Assembly: GCA_904394975.1 (NCBI GenBank)
Contig: CAJFNQ010000017.1
Span: forward strand, 91,641-155,640
Length of the DNA: 64,000 bases
Reading direction: 5' to 3'
DNA from: Candidatus Metaruminococcus gallistercoris
GTDB lineage: Bacteria > Bacillota > Clostridia > Oscillospirales > Ruminococcaceae
The notes under the pieces were generated by a model that did not search any database, was not told the DNA's origin, and saw nothing but the letters and a program-made list of their open reading frames with translations. Both the position numbers and the translations under genes were made by a program. Shown piece by piece: positions 4,264 to 16,042 of the stretch. The stretch's first letter is position 1, and every line of letters begins with the position of its first letter.

Positions 4264-6762
4264 TTATTCATCTGCTTTTTCTTCAGAAGATTCTTCTGTT
4301 TTTTCTTCTTTGTTGTTTGAAAAAACAAACTCATTGTTTTCAAACGAAACGGTTACTTTATCCCCTGCTTTGAACTTCCCTTCCAGAAATTCCTCCGAAA
4401 GTTTATCTTCAATCTGCGAGGTGATGGCACGACGAAGCGGACGTGCGCCGTAAATCGGATCATATCCAACCTCAGCAATATGCTCGATGCAGGAATCCGA
4501 GAAATCAATGCTGATTTCCAATCCTTCAACACGTTTTTTCAAACCATTCAGCATGTTGCCGGCAATCTTTTTAATGTCATCCGACGTCAGCTTATGGAAA
4601 ACAATAATATCATCAATTCGGTTTAAAAATTCAGGTTTAAAGTGCTGCTTCAATTCACCCATAACATCCGCTTTGATGTCTTTATCATCTTTTACCGCGG
4701 CTTCTTCGGAAACAAAACCAAGATTTTTTCGCTCACTGATAAGCCGTGCGCCAATATTGGATGTCATGATGATTACACTGTTTTTAAAGCTTACTCTTCT
4801 TCCCTGACTGTCGGTCAAAATGCCGTCTTCCAGAATCTGAAGCAACATATTGAACACATCAGGATGTGCTTTCTCGACCTCATCAAACAAGATAACCGAA
4901 TATGGTTTCCGACGAATTTTTTCAGTCAGCTGACCGCCATCGTCATAACCAACATACCCCGGAGGCGAACCAACCATTCTAGAGACAGAGTGTTTCTCCA
5001 TGTACTCAGACATATCGAGACGAATCATGGCGTTTTCATCGCCAAACAGTGCTTCGGCCAGTGCTTTACAGAGCTCTGTTTTACCGACACCAGTCGGACC
5101 AAGGAACAAGAAAGAGCCAATTGGACGTTTCGGGTCTTTTAATCCAATCCTGCCGCGGCGAATGGCTTTCGCTACTGAACTTACCGCTTCATCCTGACCA
5201 ATAACACGTTCATGAAGAACCTTTTCAAGGTTAAGCAGTCGTTCGCCTTCCTGTTCATTCAGCTGTTTGACCGGTATGCCAGTCCAGCTGGAAACAATAT
5301 CCGCAATATCCTCCTCGGTTACTACACCGGAGTTATGCTTATTATCTTCCTGCCAATGTTGCTTTTGTTCTTCAAGCTGATTGGTAATCTCTTTTTCTTT
5401 GTCACGAATTTTGGCAGCAGATTCAAAATCCTGCGAATTAATCGCTGCAGCTTTTTCCTCGCCAAGGCGTTTTAATTCGTTTTCCAGCTGCTGCATATCC
5501 GGCGGAGCCGTGAATGCCTGCAAACGAACTTTGGATGCAGCCTCATCAATCAGGTCGATTGCTTTATCCGGCAGATACCGGTCGTTGATATAACGTGCAG
5601 ACAATTTTACTGCCGCTTTGATCGCTTCATCAGAAATTTTCACTTTATGATGGGCTTCATATTTATCACGAAGGCCAAACAGAATGGTAACAGCATCTTC
5701 TTCCGAAGGCTCATCCACCATGACCGGTTGGAAACGACGCTCCAGAGCAGAATCCTTTTCGATGTATTTGCGGTATTCATCAATTGTAGTTGCACCAATG
5801 AGCTGTAATTCACCACGTGCAAGCTGCGGTTTTAAAATATTGGCTGCGTCTACTGCGCCCTCCGCAGCGCCGGCACCGATAATCGTGTGAATTTCATCAA
5901 TAAACAGAATGATGTTGCCGGCTTTGGTGACTTCATCCAATGCACCTTTGATCCGCTCTTCGAAATCGCCGCGGTATTTTGCACCCGCCAACATAGAAGT
6001 AATATCCAAAGAAAACACCCGTTTGTTTTTCAGTGTCTCCGGCACCTCACCGTTGACGATCTTCTGTGCCAATCCTTCAGCGATTGCTGTTTTACCAACG
6101 CCGGGTTCCCCGATCAGGCAAGGATTGTTTTTGGTTCGTCTTGAGAGAATTTGGATGACACGTTTAATCTCTTCCTGACGCCCAACCACTGGATCGATTT
6201 GGTTATCCTTTGCAAGCTGGGTTAAATCACGGCCGAATTTATTTAACTGCGGGGTATCGCCGCCTTTGGCATTTGCGCTATGGGAGCTGCCGTAGCTGTT
6301 CTCCTGCGGCCCGGATACTCCTGCTTCACCAACTTCATTGATACATTCGCTGTAAAGGTCTCTGATGTTTACACCAAATTCCTGCAGAAATGCCACTGCA
6401 TAACTGTCAGACTCCCGCAAAATTGCCATCAGTAAATGCTCGGTACCAACGTAAGTGTGTTTCAAATTACGCGCTTCGTAAATTGACATTTCCAGAATGC
6501 GTTTGCTTCGAGGGGTAAAATCAGCCGGAGACATCCGGGTTGGAATCCCCTTGCCAATCACCGTTTCAAGTTTGTGATAAACATCCTGTTTTGTAATATT
6601 ATGTTTATTTAACAGAGTACCAGCCACACCGGTTTCTTCTCCGCAAAGTGCACATAAAATATGCTCACTGCCAATATAAGTATGGCCAAGTTCTGACGCG
6701 ATCTGCATGGCGTCATTTAAAACCTTGTTGGCTTTCTCAGTAAATCCATTGAATGCATACAT
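4264..6762 (-). CDS. clpC: ATP-dependent Clp protease ATP-binding subunit ClpC
   Basis: Two Clp_N repeats, two AAA+ modules (GEPGVGKT and GPTGVGKT), a UVR linker. It is the last gene of the ctsR operon. Confidence 0.97.
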
Positions 6763-10413: not shown

Positions 10414-10459
10414 AAAAAAAGACGGAAAGCAGTGTATTCTGCTTTCCGTCTTCGTCTTT
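10414..10459. terminator. Bidirectional intrinsic terminator
   Basis: 12-bp stem GACGGAAAGCAG/CTGCTTTCCGTC with an A-run on one side and T-rich sequence on the other. Confidence 0.8.
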
Positions 10460-10469
10460 AAAATGAAAT

Positions 10470-12461
10470 TTAATTTCTCATCAATTTGTCAGGCTCATAC
10501 TTGTTAGTAAACAAAACGGTGATGACCGCGGGAATAGTTACTGATAATACAGAAACAATAAACAGCATGAAAAAAAGCTTCCAGTTCATTAAAATCAATT
10601 GCTGATGAAACAGAATATCATTTGTCAGAATCATTAAAAGTACAGTAAACAAAAGAGAGATCACAAAGATTTTAACTGCTTCCCAGACCGATTCTACTAC
10701 GATTAGCCGGTACACAGCAACTCGTGTCGCTCCATTCGCTTTCAAAATGCAAATTTCATATTTTCTCTGCTGAGTTTCATGGATTCGAACCACCGTTACC
10801 ATAAAGAAAACGATTATAACAATCGCGATTGAAACGATTGTCATCGCAATGCGAGTCTCCTGAATACTTGTTGTCATAGTTTCAAAATCCTGATAACGAT
10901 TATACACCAACCAGTTTGAATCCAGCTCGCGGATTGCCATTTTGGCAGATTCCACCTCATCGTATCTGCCAACAACCGCCCAACAAGCACTTGGTGCCCA
11001 CGCAGATTCATTTTCTTCAAATGTTTCGGTCTCATTTTCTTTCAAAAGTGCTGAGAGCCGCTGATAAGGAACATAAATCACCATGTTTCCTGATTCAGAA
11101 TAACTGTTTTCAAAAGTTCCAGCCAATATTCCACGAACAGAAACATTAATTGTGTCAGATTGGGTAACAGCCAGATCGATTGATATACCACCCTGTTCAA
11201 TGTTTTTCAATTTCGTTGGTACTTTCAGTGATAACGTCAATTTGGTTTTATCCAGATCATCCAATCCCAGTTCCTGTGCAACTAGATAAGAAACATAAAC
11301 GCCATCTTCCTCTGATATTGTTTCATCCAGAACAATTGACTTTTGGTCCATTAACTGATCGCTGTAATATGGTACAACATAGTAACTGATGCGCTTGCCG
11401 TTTATGTCCTGCCCCTGTATTTCATAATACGGGATAACATTGCGAATCCAGGTCAGTTTTCTGATCTTTTGGTATGCATCTTCATCAAACGGAGCATCCC
11501 AAGGATCAAACATTGCCTTTGTACGCTGTTTTTCGCCATTTGTATTGGTCGCGTTGACAACAAAGATTTCCCGGTCTGAAATGCGGTTCATCAGATAATC
11601 CTGATTTGCAACGAAATTTTGGCCAAAGTCTGAACAAAGCGAGACAAACGAAACCGCAAGCGCACAAAATAAAACAATCAGGCAATTGCGCAATCTGTTT
11701 TTCCGACTTTTTGCATTTATATAATGTGCGTAAAATCCGAATGAATAATTCGTCTTATGCTCTTTACTCTCGCTTTTTTCCATCTCCAAATCATTATTTA
11801 AATCGCCGGATAAGACAACACGGCGGTCCGTTATTTGATACAGAACATCCGCACGATGATAAATATCGGGATCATGTGTAGCAATGACTACCATTTTATG
11901 TTGCTCATGCGCAATCTTCCAAAGCAGATCAAAAACCATATCCGCATTTTGTTTATCCAAGGCGGATGTCGGCTCGTCCGCAATAATCAGATCCGGGTTT
12001 TTAATCAGCGCACAGGCAATTGCGGCACGCTGTCGTTCGCCGCCTGAAAGCTGACGCGGATACATATCTGCCTTATCCCTAAGCCCGATTGTTTCCAGAA
12101 GTTCATCAACACGGCTTCGGCTTTTATCTTGTATCTTCTCAACCATCGAGAGTGAAGTCAACAGATTTTCCCGAACGTTCATGGAATCGATCAGACTGTT
12201 CTGCTGGAACACATAACCGATTCGATATCGCCGGTAGAATGCCTTTTCCCGGTCGTTTTCCGAATCTATCTGTGTCCCGTCAAATACATAAGAATGCCCT
12301 GTTTGAGAAGCAATCAGGCCGATGATGTAAAGAAGAGTGGTTTTTCCGCTTCCGGAAGGACCGGTGATTGCTACGACCTGTCCTTTTGGAAGCGTAAGCG
12401 CGGCGTTTTCAATAACCGACTTATCCCCAAAAGAAATGTTGATATGATCAAGCCGGATCAT
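10470..12461 (-). CDS. ABC transporter, fused ATP-binding domain and FtsX-type permease (MacB architecture), paralog 1
   Basis: N-terminal NBD (GPSGSGKT, LSGGERQR, LIIADEPT, ATHD), one TM helix, an extracytoplasmic domain of about 260 aa, then a C-terminal FtsX-like 3-TM bundle. AAAGAGGTG SD before the ATG at 12461. The ORF track starts at GTG 12470. Confidence 0.85.
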   Translation of the reverse strand: MIRLDHINISFGDKSVIENAALTLPKGQVVAITGPSGSGKTTLLYIIGLIASQTGHSYVFDGTQIDSENDREKAFYRRYRIGYVFQQNSLIDSMNVRENLLTSLSMVEKIQDKSRSRVDELLETIGLRDKADMYPRQLSGGERQRAAIACALIKNPDLIIADEPTSALDKQNADMVFDLLWKIAHEQHKMVVIATHDPDIYHRADVLYQITDRRVVLSGDLNNDLEMEKSESKEHKTNYSFGFYAHYINAKSRKNRLRNCLIVLFCALAVSFVSLCSDFGQNFVANQDYLMNRISDREIFVVNATNTNGEKQRTKAMFDPWDAPFDEDAYQKIRKLTWIRNVIPYYEIQGQDINGKRISYYVVPYYSDQLMDQKSIVLDETISEEDGVYVSYLVAQELGLDDLDKTKLTLSLKVPTKLKNIEQGGISIDLAVTQSDTINVSVRGILAGTFENSYSESGNMVIYVPYQRLSALLKENETETFEENESAWAPSACWAVVGRYDEVESAKMAIRELDSNWLVYNRYQDFETMTTSIQETRIAMTIVSIAIVIIVFFMVTVVRIHETQQRKYEICILKANGATRVAVYRLIVVESVWEAVKIFVISLLFTVLLMILTNDILFHQQLILMNWKLFFMLFIVSVLSVTIPAVITVLFTNKYEPDKLMRN

Positions 12462-12489
12462 AGTATTCACCTCTTTCCTTTTTATAAAG

Positions 12490-12525
12490 GAACAAAAAGG
12501 CCGCTTTTATTTTGCGGCCTTTTTC
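12490..12525 (-). terminator. Intrinsic terminator between the two ABC genes
   Basis: On the minus strand: GGCCGC-AAAATAAAA-GCGGCC followed by TTTTTGTT. It lies 10 nt after the ABC2 stop and about 30 nt before the ABC1 start. Confidence 0.7.
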
Positions 12526-12534
12526 CTTACCTGT

Positions 12535-14706
12535 CTAATTTCTCATGATAACATCGGGCTCGTATTTATTGGTCAGCACAAGCGAAATGACAGATGGTAA
12601 AACCACCGAACCAATGGAAATGAGCAGCAGCCACAACAGCGTGTCCGCTCCAAAGAAAAATCCTTCTACGATCCGTGAAGCCACTGCATATGTTCCATAT
12701 GCTAGAATCAGTGAAACCACAAAAGTCGCCACAGCCTGCAGCACCATTTCGGTCATGACCAATTTCCACACTTCTTTCCGGGTCATTCCATTTGCGCGAA
12801 GCATGGCAAATTCGTACTTTCTGCGGTCAATGATGTTGACATAAACGATTGCGGAAAGACAAAGAACAACGACAAGTACTGCCAGTGAAATATACAAAGC
12901 CACATTTTGGGTGTTTTCTGTCGATTCGGTCACAGCATGGTAATCCTGATACTCCTGTACCACGTCGATGTCAGGAGCAATTTTTGCGATTTCCGCTTTT
13001 ACTGCATCAATGTTCGCAACATCGTCTACTCTTAAATAATACGCCCAAGGACGCCAATTAAAGTAATCATGTTCTGACAAATCGGGATATAATTCACGAA
13101 GCATTTCTGGTATTTCCGTTAACGTGTTCTTGTCAATACATTCCTGAAGTATTGCGCAGGGAGCATAAACATATGCACCCATATTAAATGAAGCTGCATT
13201 TGTATATATACCTCTTACAGGCAGCGTAATCGTATCTCTTACACACCAATCCGTTGACATCGTAAAGTCATATTCTTGTCCCTCAGATGTCGTTCCTGAA
13301 GCAGTACTTTCAAATCTTTTAGCGGGTACATAAACATCTAGTGTTATAACAAGTCCCAGCACATCATCTTCAGAAATATCAATTCCAAGCGCCGTTGCTA
13401 ATTCCATGGGAATATATGCACCCTTACCAGCTTCGACTCTGGGATTAATTACTTTGCTTCCCAATTCATAAGTGCCATAACTCAAATAAGAAGATATGAC
13501 ATAATAACCTTGGCTGACTGGATATTCTTGTTGCAAATCATTATATTCAGTTTCGCTGAGCATTTGAGTTGTAAACCCAAATACACCTGTTTTTCCATTT
13601 TCATTTTCATATGAAATATAAAACGGCGGCAAGATACTTTCCGAGAGCTCATCTTCGCCAATCGCCGAAATACCTCCGTTCCCAAAACTGATTAGCGGAG
13701 CCGAAGCTTCAACAAATTCAATGTTTTTAAGCTGTTCAATTTCTTCATCAGTCAAGGAAATCGATCTCGAATCATTGGCACCGTTCCCGTAGATCGGATC
13801 GCCTTGCTTTACAGCCAAAAGTTCTCTGTTAGAAATAGATTGGTAATTCTCCTGCTGTCGCTTGCTGAAATCCTTCACATACCCGGCACTCAGTGCTGTA
13901 ACCGCAATAGACGCCGCGCAAACGATCACAGTAAGGTATTTCAGCAGCTGTCCTTTTCTTGCGCTCTTGCGCAAATACCATAGGTTCAGCCAAAATCCGC
14001 TTGTTTTCCTTTGTGCCTTCTCTTCCTTTTGTTCCGCTTCTTCCGGCTCTTCCGCAACACCCTTTATCAGCACCGCTTTTTTGTCCCGAATCTCATACAC
14101 TACCTCACACTGTTCCAGTACGACCGGGCTGTGTGTGGCTATGATAACTGTCTTCCCCGCTTTTGCCGCCGCTTTTAACAAGCTGAGAATTTCCATGGTA
14201 TTAGCTTCATCCAGTGATGAAGTCGGTTCGTCCGCAAGGATCAGCTCCGGTTCTTTTGCCAGCGCACACGCGAGCGCCGCCCTTTGCTGTTCCCCTCCGG
14301 ACAGGGTGTTCGGCCATTCCTTTCCGCGCCCCTCCAGGCCGACCTGTCTTAGCAATTCCTCCATACGGGCGTCTCCGGTATCCGCCCCCGCAAGGGCGGC
14401 GGACAGCCGGATGTTTTCCTGTACGGTCAGCCTTGTGTTCAGGTTGTTTTCCTGAAACACATAGCCGATCTTTGTTTTCCGGATCTCCCCTTTTTCTTGT
14501 TCCGACCAGAGATCCACATGTTTTCCATTGAGCTCGTACTCATAATCCAAATTGGAGGAGATCAACCCCGCACAGTACAGCAATGTTGTTTTTCCGCTGC
14601 CGGACGGACCAGTTAACGCTGTCAGTTTTCCGGACGGCGCCGTAAGGGTGCCGTCTTCGATGACACGTTCTTGGAACGCAATCTGTATTCCTTTCAGCCT
14701 TAACAT
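12535..14706 (-). CDS. ABC transporter, fused ATP-binding domain and FtsX-type permease (MacB architecture), paralog 2
   Basis: NBD motifs GPSGSGKT, LSGGEQQR, LILADEPT, ATHS. Long extracytoplasmic domain. C-terminal FtsX bundle ending TNKYEPDVIMRN (paralog 1 ends TNKYEPDKLMRN). GGAG SD before the ATG at 14706. The ORF track starts at GTG 14715. Confidence 0.85.
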   Translation of the reverse strand: MLRLKGIQIAFQERVIEDGTLTAPSGKLTALTGPSGSGKTTLLYCAGLISSNLDYEYELNGKHVDLWSEQEKGEIRKTKIGYVFQENNLNTRLTVQENIRLSAALAGADTGDARMEELLRQVGLEGRGKEWPNTLSGGEQQRAALACALAKEPELILADEPTSSLDEANTMEILSLLKAAAKAGKTVIIATHSPVVLEQCEVVYEIRDKKAVLIKGVAEEPEEAEQKEEKAQRKTSGFWLNLWYLRKSARKGQLLKYLTVIVCAASIAVTALSAGYVKDFSKRQQENYQSISNRELLAVKQGDPIYGNGANDSRSISLTDEEIEQLKNIEFVEASAPLISFGNGGISAIGEDELSESILPPFYISYENENGKTGVFGFTTQMLSETEYNDLQQEYPVSQGYYVISSYLSYGTYELGSKVINPRVEAGKGAYIPMELATALGIDISEDDVLGLVITLDVYVPAKRFESTASGTTSEGQEYDFTMSTDWCVRDTITLPVRGIYTNAASFNMGAYVYAPCAILQECIDKNTLTEIPEMLRELYPDLSEHDYFNWRPWAYYLRVDDVANIDAVKAEIAKIAPDIDVVQEYQDYHAVTESTENTQNVALYISLAVLVVVLCLSAIVYVNIIDRRKYEFAMLRANGMTRKEVWKLVMTEMVLQAVATFVVSLILAYGTYAVASRIVEGFFFGADTLLWLLLISIGSVVLPSVISLVLTNKYEPDVIMRN

Positions 14707-14755
14707 CCGCCTCACTCCTTTAGATTATGCTTTATTTTTTGTTTTAAAAGTTTGT

Positions 14756-15166
14756 TCAATTATATGTTGGATGTCCAAAGTTATACGAATTAGAAATAAG
14801 ATTATTTCCTGAATTACTCCATGTATGTCTCATAACAACCAATGGAGCAGTGGAAAGTTTCAGATTGTTTCCATATACTTTTATAGAAACTACATTGCCA
14901 AACGCTTGATTACCTGTTTTAGATGCTGATACCGATACATCCGCTCCCGTACCGTTTGATGCCCGAAACGAAGATGATGTAACAATACTTGAGCTATTCG
15001 GCATAGAAGTTAAATAGCCTGTAAAACCCGTTCCATTCACAGAAAACCAATCATTGGTTGTGACAGGACTTTGTACAACAGCTGTTGCTAAAAACATTGA
15101 GGAAAAAAGCAACATAGTAGTACTAAGAACTGCGACCATTATATGTTTTAACCGTTTTGTACTCAT
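14756..15166 (-). CDS. Small secreted protein of unknown function (Ser/Thr/Asn-rich, signal peptide)
   Basis: AAAGGAG SD before the ATG at 15166. MSTKRLKHIMVAVLSTTMLLFSSMFLATAVV is a signal peptide. No terminator before the ABC gene 49 nt downstream. Confidence 0.7.
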   Translation of the reverse strand: MSTKRLKHIMVAVLSTTMLLFSSMFLATAVVQSPVTTNDWFSVNGTGFTGYLTSMPNSSSIVTSSSFRASNGTGADVSVSASKTGNQAFGNVVSIKVYGNNLKLSTAPLVVMRHTWSNSGNNLISNSYNFGHPTYN

Positions 15167-15196
15167 TTTTATACTCCTTTCATTTTTGATATTCAC

Positions 15197-15214
15197 TTAA
15201 AAATAAACGCCCAT
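15197..15214 (-). promoter_or_regulatory. Leader mini-ORF MGVYF* with its own SD (GAAGGTG)
   Basis: Minus strand reads GAAGGTGATTCCA-ATG-GGC-GTT-TAT-TTT-TAA, ending 30 nt upstream of the main ATG. It is homologous to the element at 15815-15835. Confidence 0.4.
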
Positions 15215-15246
15215 TGGAATCACCTTCAGTATTATTTGTTAGCAAT

Positions 15247-15275
15247 ATAATAACATATTTTTTCATATTTATAAA
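15247..15275 (-). promoter_or_regulatory. Candidate sigma-A promoter (TTTATA-17-TGtTATTAT, extended -10)
   Basis: Read on the minus strand. A positional homolog of the promoter at 15880-15908. Confidence 0.5.
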
Positions 15276-15343
15276 TAAATTTTATATAAAATTACAATAT
15301 TTATTTAACAAAATATTTCAAGAAGATTTATGTAATATCGTCT

Positions 15344-15778
15344 TTATTCAGAAACATCCAATATTTCTGTGTAAAGCTCCTCTCCGGTGGAATAGGAATA
15401 CCAGGTTACTTTACACCGGGTATCCGACAACCATTCCTGTTCGACGATCTTGGCAGGCCAAGGCCGCATCCTTACGGGTTCGTCGTATAAGTACGCGGTA
15501 AGAAGGAATCCGCGTACTTTGTTGTCAAATTGAAATTTGTCAATCGTTGTAGAGAGGCCGGTCATGGATGAAACCGTAAAAGTTGACCATTCTACCTTGT
15601 CGTTTTCTCCTATCGAAGAAGAGATGACAGCACGGAAGGAACTGCTTCCAACTGCATAATCACGTACACTTACCACTTCGTTTGGTTCTTCTGCCACTGC
15701 CGGAACCGTCATAACAATCCCCAGCAGGAAAATAAGCAAAAGCGGTAATAATCTTTTTTTCAGTCTTGAGGCACACAT
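15344..15778 (-). CDS. Small secreted protein of unknown function (signal peptide, AVA-EEP cleavage-like site)
   Basis: GGAGG SD 7 nt before the ATG. The N-terminus MCASRLKKRLLPLLLIFLLGIVMTVPAVA resembles that of the neighbouring small protein (MxxxRLK). Both share the hexapeptide SSSFRA. Confidence 0.7.
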   Translation of the reverse strand: MCASRLKKRLLPLLLIFLLGIVMTVPAVAEEPNEVVSVRDYAVGSSSFRAVISSSIGENDKVEWSTFTVSSMTGLSTTIDKFQFDNKVRGFLLTAYLYDEPVRMRPWPAKIVEQEWLSDTRCKVTWYSYSTGEELYTEILDVSE

Positions 15779-15814
15779 CGTAATACCTCCTTCGCTTTCA
15801 TCATGTCAATCAAC

Positions 15815-15835
15815 CTATAAACGCATCACGCCCAT
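15815..15835 (-). promoter_or_regulatory. Leader mini-ORF MGVMRL* with its own SD (GGAGG)
   Basis: Minus strand reads GGAGGTTGATTCCA-ATG-GGC-GTG-ATG-CGT-TTA-TAG, ending 36 nt upstream of the main ATG. Confidence 0.4.
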
Positions 15836-15879
15836 TGGAATCAACCTCCAAGTTTTATTTTAGATATTTCTACACATAT

Positions 15880-15908
15880 AAAATAACATAAATTATTAAA
15901 ATTGTAAA
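15880..15908 (-). promoter_or_regulatory. Candidate sigma-A promoter (TTTACA-17-TGtTATTTT)
   Basis: Read on the minus strand. Homologous to the promoter at 15247-15275. Confidence 0.5.
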
Positions 15909-15965
15909 TAAATTTTATGCAAAATGTTAACATTGATGCACGGTCAAATTTTTATATATATAATA

Positions 15966-16018
15966 AAAAACACTCTCTTGCCCGGCAAATACTACCAAAG
16001 CAAAAGAGTGTTTTTTTT
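15966..16018 (-). terminator. Intrinsic terminator after yunB
   Basis: On the minus strand a 10-bp stem CACTCTTTTG/CAAGAGAGTG (one G-U pair) with a 20-nt loop, followed by TTTTTTATTA. Confidence 0.6.
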
Positions 16019-16042
16019 AAATCATTCAGATAACAACATTTT

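Follow-up and report, generated by a model that had tools for sequence, protein, structure and literature searches.

A rare, strain-variable module of small secreted proteins and paired type VII ABC proteins in gut and rumen Oscillospiraceae and Ruminococcaceae

Introduction

Type VII ATP-binding cassette (ABC) proteins are mechanotransmitters that act at the outer face of the membrane (PMC5985334). The systems to which the locus reported here can best be compared are the lactococcin 972 loci (lcn972; scbABC in pneumococci), LolCDE, the macrolide/enterotoxin exporter MacB, BceAB and FtsEX. In lactococcin-972-type loci the immunity role of the B and C genes is assumed and unverified, and 27.5% of pneumococci keep scbBC without the bacteriocin gene (PMC11796350). 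For BceAB the proposed mechanism is target protection, and BceB-type outer domains set peptide specificity (PMC7038271). Here we describe a locus in a 64,000-nucleotide stretch of Candidatus Metaruminococcus gallistercoris (GenBank assembly GCA_904394975.1, contig CAJFNQ010000017.1, positions 91,641 to 155,640), which is called the window in the following. The initial annotation of this DNA had placed four co-oriented genes on the minus strand, and we recovered all four as open reading frames: secreted protein B (15344-15778, 144 aa), secreted protein A (14756-15166, 136 aa from an ATG with an AAAGGAG ribosome-binding site), ABC2 (12535-14706, 723 aa from an ATG) and ABC1 (10470-12461, 663 aa from an ATG). 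Both ABC proteins are half-transporters in which a nucleotide-binding domain (NBD) is fused to an FtsX-type permease with four transmembrane (TM) helices, ABC1 being the constant and ABC2 the variable subunit.

We found that this module is rare and varies between strains of gut and rumen Oscillospiraceae and Ruminococcaceae, that it is associated with mobile elements, and that its secreted cargo and the ABC2 outer domain recombine independently. We tentatively read it as a competition module that is horizontally mobile and polymorphic between strains; secreted effectors would be combined with an asymmetric, LolCDE-like ABC machine for protection of the envelope. We give this reading a probability of roughly 0.4. 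The logic of the module resembles that of known bacteriocin-plus-ABC loci, and by the family tests described below it belongs to none of them. In the gut and rumen, Oscillospiraceae are abundant and difficult to culture, and competition among them is little understood. The module unites three uncharacterised parts, namely a family of secreted proteins, a clade of fused type VII ABC proteins and a 5′ leader.

The ABC pair compared with described systems

Both ABC proteins had been described from the start as having a type VII (MacB/FtsX) layout, and Pfam and hydropathy agreed with this. ABC_tran scored 110.7 and 97.1 bits in the two proteins, above the curated cut-offs, and FtsX (PF02687) scored 35.3 and 47.9 bits against a cut-off of 25.5 in the C-terminal part; FtsX was present in all 14 family members. 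Canonical Walker A, Q-loop, signature (LSGGE), Walker B-Glu and H-loop motifs are found in both. According to hydropathy, TM1 lies at about residues 253-281 and is followed by an extracytoplasmic domain of about 250 aa in ABC1 and about 320 aa in ABC2, and then by three TM helices. The two proteins are 31% identical over their full length and share a TNKYEPDxxMRN tail; the near-identical ends noted earlier, TNKYEPDKLMRN and TNKYEPDVIMRN, match that description. Among the Pfam families that had been proposed for a search, ABC_tran and FtsX were thus found in both proteins, whereas MacB_PCD reached only 24-26 bits in ABC2 (cut-off 27), had no match in ABC1 and matched one of the 14 family members at E up to 0.01.

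MacB shares with these proteins the N-terminal fused NBD, the four TM helices and the large domain between TM1 and TM2. Unlike MacB, the module has no MacA or TolC partner, as no gene for a MacA-type membrane-fusion protein or an outer-membrane duct occurs in the window flanks or in any related locus, its MacB_PCD scores are sub-threshold or absent, and it is probably a heterodimer where MacB is a homodimer.

The likeness to LolCDE lies in two different four-TM permease units of the FtsX type that are always encoded together, in a relative with one ATPase and two permeases, and in a machine that handles Sec-exported substrates at the outer face of the membrane. LolCDE users, in contrast, are Gram-negative, while the hosts here are Oscillospiraceae and Ruminococcaceae (Firmicutes). 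Moreover, the NBDs of the module are fused and one outer domain is hypervariable, the cargo sequences have no lipobox and carry AxA signal-peptidase I sites instead, and the LolD, LolC and LolE models stay far below their cut-offs (LolD, 172 and 135 bits against 307.75; lolCE, at most 17 bits). The pairing of ABC1 with ABC2 is observed, and we infer that the two form a LolCE-like heterodimer. This idea, already raised in the initial annotation, gains support from the constant pairing, from the difference between the conserved outer domain of ABC1 and the hypervariable one of ABC2, and from the relative with one ATPase and two permeases.

In lactococcin 972 loci, as in the module, the gene of a small beta-rich protein secreted by Sec is followed by membrane and ABC genes presumed to provide immunity, and natural variants lose the secreted-protein gene and keep the ABC genes. 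The lactococcin-972-type ABC family TIGR03608 was also the best NCBIfam match of both NBDs, although at 191 and 170 bits they fall below its cut-off of 254.85. In contrast to these loci, the module has two fused NBD-permease paralogues rather than a separate ATPase and permease, its small proteins are not detectably related to lactococcin 972, and there is no 7-TM TIGR01654 protein; at E up to 1, the permease halves gave no match to this model. BceAB resembles the module in having a permease of the FtsX family with a poorly conserved outer domain that determines specificity; target protection is proposed for it instead of transport. However, BceB cooperates with a two-component system, and its single chain has 10 TM helices, TM7 and TM8 flanking the outer domain; the module has four TM helices per chain and neither of these features. 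FtsEX, finally, is a type VII ABC system without a transport substrate that is coupled to a secreted peptidoglycan hydrolase, which recalls the amidase cargo of two related loci (L012 and L014, see below). The module differs from it in being mobile and strain-variable, in having cargo that mostly is not a hydrolase and in scoring below the cut-offs: FtsE (TIGR02673) reached 167 and 150 bits against 264.85, and FtsX_Gpos reached 24 bits against 225, solely in the L018 relative.

The NBD alone matches MacB, LolD, FtsE and BceA. A profile of the permease half found no relative in PDB save a marginal match to the membrane domain of YbbP (E 0.037), and no match to the outer domain. The ABC proteins are members of a known superfamily and make up a new, divergent clade of fused and paired proteins; the clade looks like an obligate pair of a constant and a variable subunit. 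Membership in an anti-phage defence system was also considered and rejected, as PADLOC returned just generic matches to the ATPase region (mad3, AriA, PtuA and others) and none for the small proteins.

Distribution, gene order and mobile context

In a set of 5.8 billion clustered proteins, 12 clusters matched the ABC permease profile; 11 represent fused proteins of full length (663-735 aa), and the remaining one is a fragment of 382 aa. When one genome per species was scanned (185,579 species), we found 8 loci, all in metagenome-assembled genomes (MAGs) of Oscillospiraceae or Ruminococcaceae, and a collection of metagenome contigs contained 3 loci. Carriage on plasmids was rejected, since neither ABC2 nor A had a tblastn match in PLSDB. 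No species-representative genome has the locus at more than 67% identity, and the metagenome contigs L005 and L021, which are of the same species as the window, have it; the window's species is either missing from the representatives or its representative lacks the locus.

The order secreted cargo, ABC2, ABC1 recurs wherever sequence upstream of ABC2 is available, typically preceded by a promoter and a leader, and ABC2 and ABC1 are paired in every complete locus. The initial annotation had named a survey of gene neighbourhoods as a way to refute a connection between the small proteins and the ABC genes. The survey did not refute it: on every contig that reaches far enough, homologues of the small proteins immediately precede such ABC genes. 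Three variants of the gene order were found. In L009 two ABC2 copies precede ABC1, and L009b has an orphan ABC2 copy. In L017 a small protein and a lone ABC2 without adjacent ABC1 are followed by a CPBP/Rce1-like membrane protease (4511-5584), a family that is often annotated as bacteriocin self-immunity. The MAG of L017 also has a complete ABC2+ABC1 locus, L014. The third variant is that of the unfused relatives L018-L020, which have one ATPase gene and two different permease genes; the genes of L018 (49-5542) encode, in this order, a divergent small protein, a permease of 486 aa, a protein of 237 aa, the one ATPase and a permease of 431 aa.

Integrases or genes for conjugation are frequently found beside the loci. 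Several loci have tyrosine recombinases/integrases as neighbours, or ParAB and a SpaA pilin, or SSB, DnaN and DpnD-PcfM. These neighbours point to mobile elements.

Strain polymorphism of the module

In the window's species, which includes contigs L005, L008 and L021, every strain compared has the locus between yunB and the aldo-keto reductase gene. Its gene content differs between these strains, and therefore the earlier description as an accessory locus holds. L005 and L021 carry A′, a protein 31% identical to A, in place of A. Their ABC2 is about 100% identical to that of the window in the NBD and the C-terminal membrane domain, and about 40% identical in the outer domain (aa 288-550). This domain is encoded by a hypervariable cassette (13057-13845, minus strand) that is flanked by the invariant motifs SxREL and WxPWAYY. 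At the DNA level the window and L005 have no match within the cassette, and its flanks are 95-99% identical. When the two forms of ABC2 were compared, the synonymous (dS) and non-synonymous (dN) divergences were 0.13 and 0.002 in the NBD and 0.04 and 0 in the C-terminal part, while in the outer domain dS was saturated and dN was 0.69. In L008, A and its leader have been deleted between microhomologies of the sequence TAAAG (L008:3380-3440 against window 14722-15342), and an intact ABC2 of the A type was kept.

A second species showed the same pattern. Here the locus lies in the context VanW...PurL...VTT_dom...locus...CBAH, and the same chromosomal site harbours either an amidase with the small membrane protein TM111 or two different small proteins. 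The outer domains of its ABC2 alleles P0017, P0018 and P0019 are 36-49% identical, their NBD and membrane domains 98-99%. Overall, the ABC2 outer domain has 34-50% identity where the ATPase and membrane domains have 98-100%. The outer domain of ABC1, on the other hand, evolves at the pace of the remaining protein; between L009 and L010, ABC1 is 97% and ABC2 56% identical. The conserved leader, the NBD and the TM segments act as recombination anchors for the exchanged cassettes. Replacement of the ABC2 outer domain within a species is a natural experiment on what the outer domains of type VII proteins recognise.

The composition of ABC2 is uneven as well. The stretch 14200-14499, which encodes part of the ATPase, has 57.7% GC and a strong AT skew at a genome average of about 42% GC, and the adjoining outer-domain cassette has 37-43% GC. 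This contrast within one gene points to a mosaic or foreign origin.

The secreted proteins and other cargo

At the N-terminus, both secreted proteins carry a hydrophobic Sec signal segment with an AxA site (in B, VPAVA followed by EEP), so that the signal peptides of the initial annotation stand. Its statement that they have no recognisable family was right for Pfam and NCBIfam, neither of which gave a match at E up to 0.1. It needs amending in that A and B are distant paralogues (22% identity, E 2e-4), and they belong to one new, very small family of Sec-secreted all-beta proteins. Among the 5.8 billion clustered proteins, A has homologues in two clusters, and those of B are 95-98% identical and come from the same species only. 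When 1.84 billion representative proteins were searched exhaustively with an HMMER profile, the family was found to have 10 members of 116-146 aa, with a well conserved signal peptide and a divergent, Ser/Thr-rich mature part.

With an alignment of 13 sequences, AlphaFold gave a model with a mean confidence (pLDDT) of 77, and of about 80-94 in the mature part, that shows eight antiparallel strands in an all-beta arrangement; mature A has about 105 aa. The two AlphaFold models (pLDDT 62 and 77) had no significant match in PDB or BFVD. Lactococcin 972 was not among the best PDB matches listed for the small-protein models, and membership in its family (TIGR01653) was rejected on the results of Pfam, NCBIfam, hhalign and Foldseek.

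The weak and non-significant structural neighbours of the small protein are open barrels and lipocalin-like folds. Together with the modelled antiparallel beta meander, and with the paralogous permease pair and the one-ATPase variant that resemble lolCDE, this could suggest a carrier system like LolCDE-LolA, in which an abundant soluble beta-protein would receive a lipid-like or hydrophobic molecule that the ABC pair takes out of the outer leaflet. We consider this very unlikely, because every structural match is non-significant (E at least 0.06, TM-score at most 0.37) and because a carrier would normally be conserved, in contrast to these hypervariable proteins, in whose place an amidase can stand.

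Strains differ in their cargo: some have A, some A′, some none, and some a peptidoglycan amidase together with a small membrane protein. Most cargo belongs to the small beta-protein family. In L012 and L014 it consists of an Amidase_6 protein with a signal peptide and a long non-catalytic N-terminal region, and of a membrane-anchored protein of about 100 aa (TM111). This combination looks like an effector plus immunity. In L009 (17440-19798) a second copy of the leader, with the mini-ORF (short open reading frame) MIA*, is followed by genes for a secreted 297-aa papain-like protein, with a YYCGPAT motif and a weak match to Peptidase_C39_2, and for a 409-aa lipoprotein. These genes look like a further effector/immunity pair of the same island.

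The amidase cargo also bears on a different explanation. FtsEX controls PcsB, CwlO, RipC or EnvC, and likewise an ABC1-ABC2 mechanotransducer could bind the cargo at the surface and activate it, or position it, for remodelling of the cell's own envelope. The type VII architecture without a membrane-fusion partner, the amidase with its long non-catalytic region and the position of the cargo, always directly upstream of the ABC genes, are consistent with such control, and the conserved outer domain of ABC1 could dock a conserved feature of the cargo. However, housekeeping remodelling does not predict mobile elements, presence or absence at the strain level, or replacement of the cargo by unrelated proteins. 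In addition, the FtsE and FtsX equivalogue models scored far below their cut-offs, and the variable outer domain does not follow the cargo. We therefore regard control of this kind as unlikely.

A possible role in competition

If the module serves competition, as we favour, the following mechanism can be proposed. A strong sigma-70-type promoter and a ribosome-loading leader would give high expression of the Sec-secreted cargo, here two paralogous all-beta proteins of about 105 aa that would act as competition effectors. The two fused half-transporters would form one asymmetric type VII machine similar to LolC/LolE, in which ABC1 is constant and the outer domain of ABC2 can be exchanged. As Sec exports the cargo, the ABC machine would not move it through the membrane. 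By analogy with the systems described above, ATP-driven mechanotransmission on the outer face of the membrane may keep secreted antibacterial proteins off the producer's own envelope. Immunity would then be achieved by expulsion or target protection, following the proposal for BceAB and the assumption made for lactococcin 972. The initial annotation had seen no obvious bacteriocin in this locus. That view may be mistaken, given that the best candidates for effectors are the small proteins; if these are antibacterial, they would represent a new class of Sec-dependent bacteriocin-like proteins.

Several observations argue for competition. The pairs of amidase and TM111 and of papain-like protein and lipoprotein suggest effectors with their immunity proteins. 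The cargo-loss variant L008, which lost A and retained ABC2, mirrors the pneumococci that keep scbBC without the bacteriocin gene. Orphan ABC2 copies, namely L009b and the lone ABC2 of L017 beside a CPBP/Rce1-like protein, point in the same direction, as do the mobile context, the presence or absence at the strain level and the replacement of alleles. The fixed gene order, the rarity and narrow taxonomic range of the module, its division into a constant and a variable subunit and the affinity of its NBDs to TIGR03608, even if below the cut-off, also fit this role.

Other results weigh against it. From the comparison of the window with L005, a cognate pairing of the cargo with the ABC2 outer domain had seemed possible, and the small proteins had originally been proposed as substrates or extracytoplasmic partners of the ABC proteins. 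We tested an allele-specific relation of this kind by co-variation and did not find it; as a rule, cognate pairing was refuted once more loci were included. L012 with amidase cargo and L022 with small-protein cargo have outer domains that are 99% identical, and in L028 a small protein 97% identical over the 39 residues available accompanies an outer domain that is only 34% identical. Across 10 loci, the identities of the small proteins and of the outer domains were not correlated (Mantel r = -0.06, p = 0.57). All these data indicate that cargo and outer domain are two cassettes that reassort independently, and allele-specific self-immunity through the outer domain is not supported. The cargo proteins moreover resemble no known bacteriocin or toxin in Pfam, NCBIfam, hhalign or Foldseek searches. 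In Foldseek the model with a pLDDT of 77 reached a best E of 0.06-0.1 and a TM-score of at most 0.37 against PDB and BFVD, and hhalign of the small-protein family profile with Lcn972 gave a probability of 1.1%. To judge from its sequence, mature B is strongly acidic, which would be unusual for a membrane-active bacteriocin, and the module contains no regulator or quorum-sensing genes.

The independence of the outer domain from the cargo would be expected if the ABC pair were an exposed target or a resistance device, that is, a pump or sensor for foreign antimicrobial peptides or a receptor for phages or bacteriocins, whose outer domain diversifies under pressure from phages or bacteriocins, towards another specificity or towards escape. 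The cargo genes would share the operon, and their identity would be irrelevant to this domain. Within a species, only the outer domain is hypervariable (its dN is 0.69, that of the NBD and C-terminal region 0.00-0.002), and BceB-type outer domains determine peptide specificity. A precedent is PIP_EF of Enterococcus, whose strain-variable outer region sets phage tropism (PMC4999554). Such a role, however, does not account for the fact that nearly all loci have, ahead of the ABC genes, a secreted-protein gene with the same conserved leader. There is also no two-component system as in Bce modules, and no evidence of phages was found. We hold this explanation to be quite unlikely.

Kin discrimination would be another way to account for free reassortment. 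The secreted beta-proteins would hit neighbouring cells via particular outer-domain alleles of ABC2, and a non-matching allele would protect its carrier. We consider this very unlikely, as we do the carrier system. If it were true, cargo and outer domain would reassort freely save for forbidden combinations, the G(A/G)TTCCRATG leader would be the label of a broader range of genes for secreted effectors in Oscillospiraceae, and a receptor polymorphism built on a type VII ABC machine would be a new kind of recognition system.

Promoters and leader of the cargo genes

Returning to the high expression that we propose for competition effectors, the promoter and leader are duplicated ahead of A and B with 74% identity, and both copies contain GGT(T)GATTCCAATGGGCGT. 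For B, sigma-70-type promoter candidates lie at 15880-15930 on the minus strand (TTTACA-17-TATTTT with a TG, and TTAACA-18-TACAAT), in the region that is duplicated upstream of A. The conserved leader of B follows at 15815-15845 (minus strand) with a purine-rich Shine-Dalgarno (SD) sequence, GATTCCAATG and the mini-ORF MGVMRL*. For A, the promoter candidate is found at 15247-15275 (minus strand; TTTATA-17-TATTAT with a TG) and the leader at 15197-15224 (minus strand) with GAAGGTGATTCCAATG and the mini-ORF MGVYF*; it is here that homology to the L005 allele stops.

In general the leader consists of a purine-rich SD, the motif G(A/G)TTCCRATG and a mini-ORF of 2-21 non-conserved codons. In the window the motif occurs in the cargo leaders and in no other place. 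Among the related loci, the leader is present ahead of the first secreted-protein gene in most of those with upstream sequence available (L001:1727, L009:9498, L010:9485, L012:8491, L014:5968, L022:5812 and L024:1663) and is absent at L017 and L018. The sole other exact match to the motif in the loci compared is the second site of L009. The leader is common to several candidate secreted-effector genes.

The information content of the leader is limited to about -6 to +12 around the motif. A functional leader peptide was rejected, since the peptides of the mini-ORFs differ in sequence as well as in length. As the mini-ORFs are unrelated, it is the initiation region that is conserved and not the peptide. 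Rfam found no known RNA family in the leader, and on reading the leaders we saw no shared stem. The leader may be a ribosome-loading element that stabilises or boosts the mRNA. STAB-SD is a comparable mRNA-stabilising element. Protection from RNase J1 by a strong SD is a comparable case (PMC5737220).

Homology between alternative alleles ends right at the leader motif, and integrases adjoin some loci, which gave rise to the idea that the motif is an integron-like recombination site. We consider this a remote possibility, since in the aligned leaders the motif follows a purine-rich, SD-like stretch and integrases are lacking at most loci. In P0001, an A homologue with 92% identity, the stop codon of the mini-ORF has been lost (MGIYFE... 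compared with MGVYF* in the window) and the gene is called as 152 aa. This loss puts the ATG of the motif in frame with A, and the mini-ORF of the window likewise is in frame with A.

Boundaries and transcription of the locus

The module is flanked by yunB and mutS2 on one side and by an aldo-keto reductase gene and ctsR on the other. As had been noted earlier, there is neither a two-component system nor a membrane-fusion gene in the window flanks. Upstream, the module is bounded by the intrinsic terminator of yunB (about 15965-16010, minus strand), a hairpin of CACTCTTTTGC...GCAAGAGAGTG followed by TTTTTT. An Rfam match to mir-3660 at window 15954-16026 (29 bits against a gathering score of 70) is spurious and results from this hairpin. 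A strong intrinsic terminator with a 15-bp stem and a T-run closes the module at 10418-10453 (minus strand).

A and ABC2 are separated by 49 nt, and the earlier statement that no terminator lies between them was borne out, as no terminator-like hairpin was detected in the gap. Co-transcription of all four genes is uncertain, because A has its own promoter and because a terminator-like, GC-rich hairpin precedes ABC1. This intercistronic hairpin (12494-12524, minus strand) consists of AAAAAGGCCGC-N9-GCGGCCTTTTT followed by GTT, and it may tune the ratio of ABC2 to ABC1 expression. Comparable GC hairpins fill the spacers between the ABC genes of L009, L010, L014 and L016, and the spacer hairpins of relatives often precede an extended -10 sequence similar to TGnTATACT.

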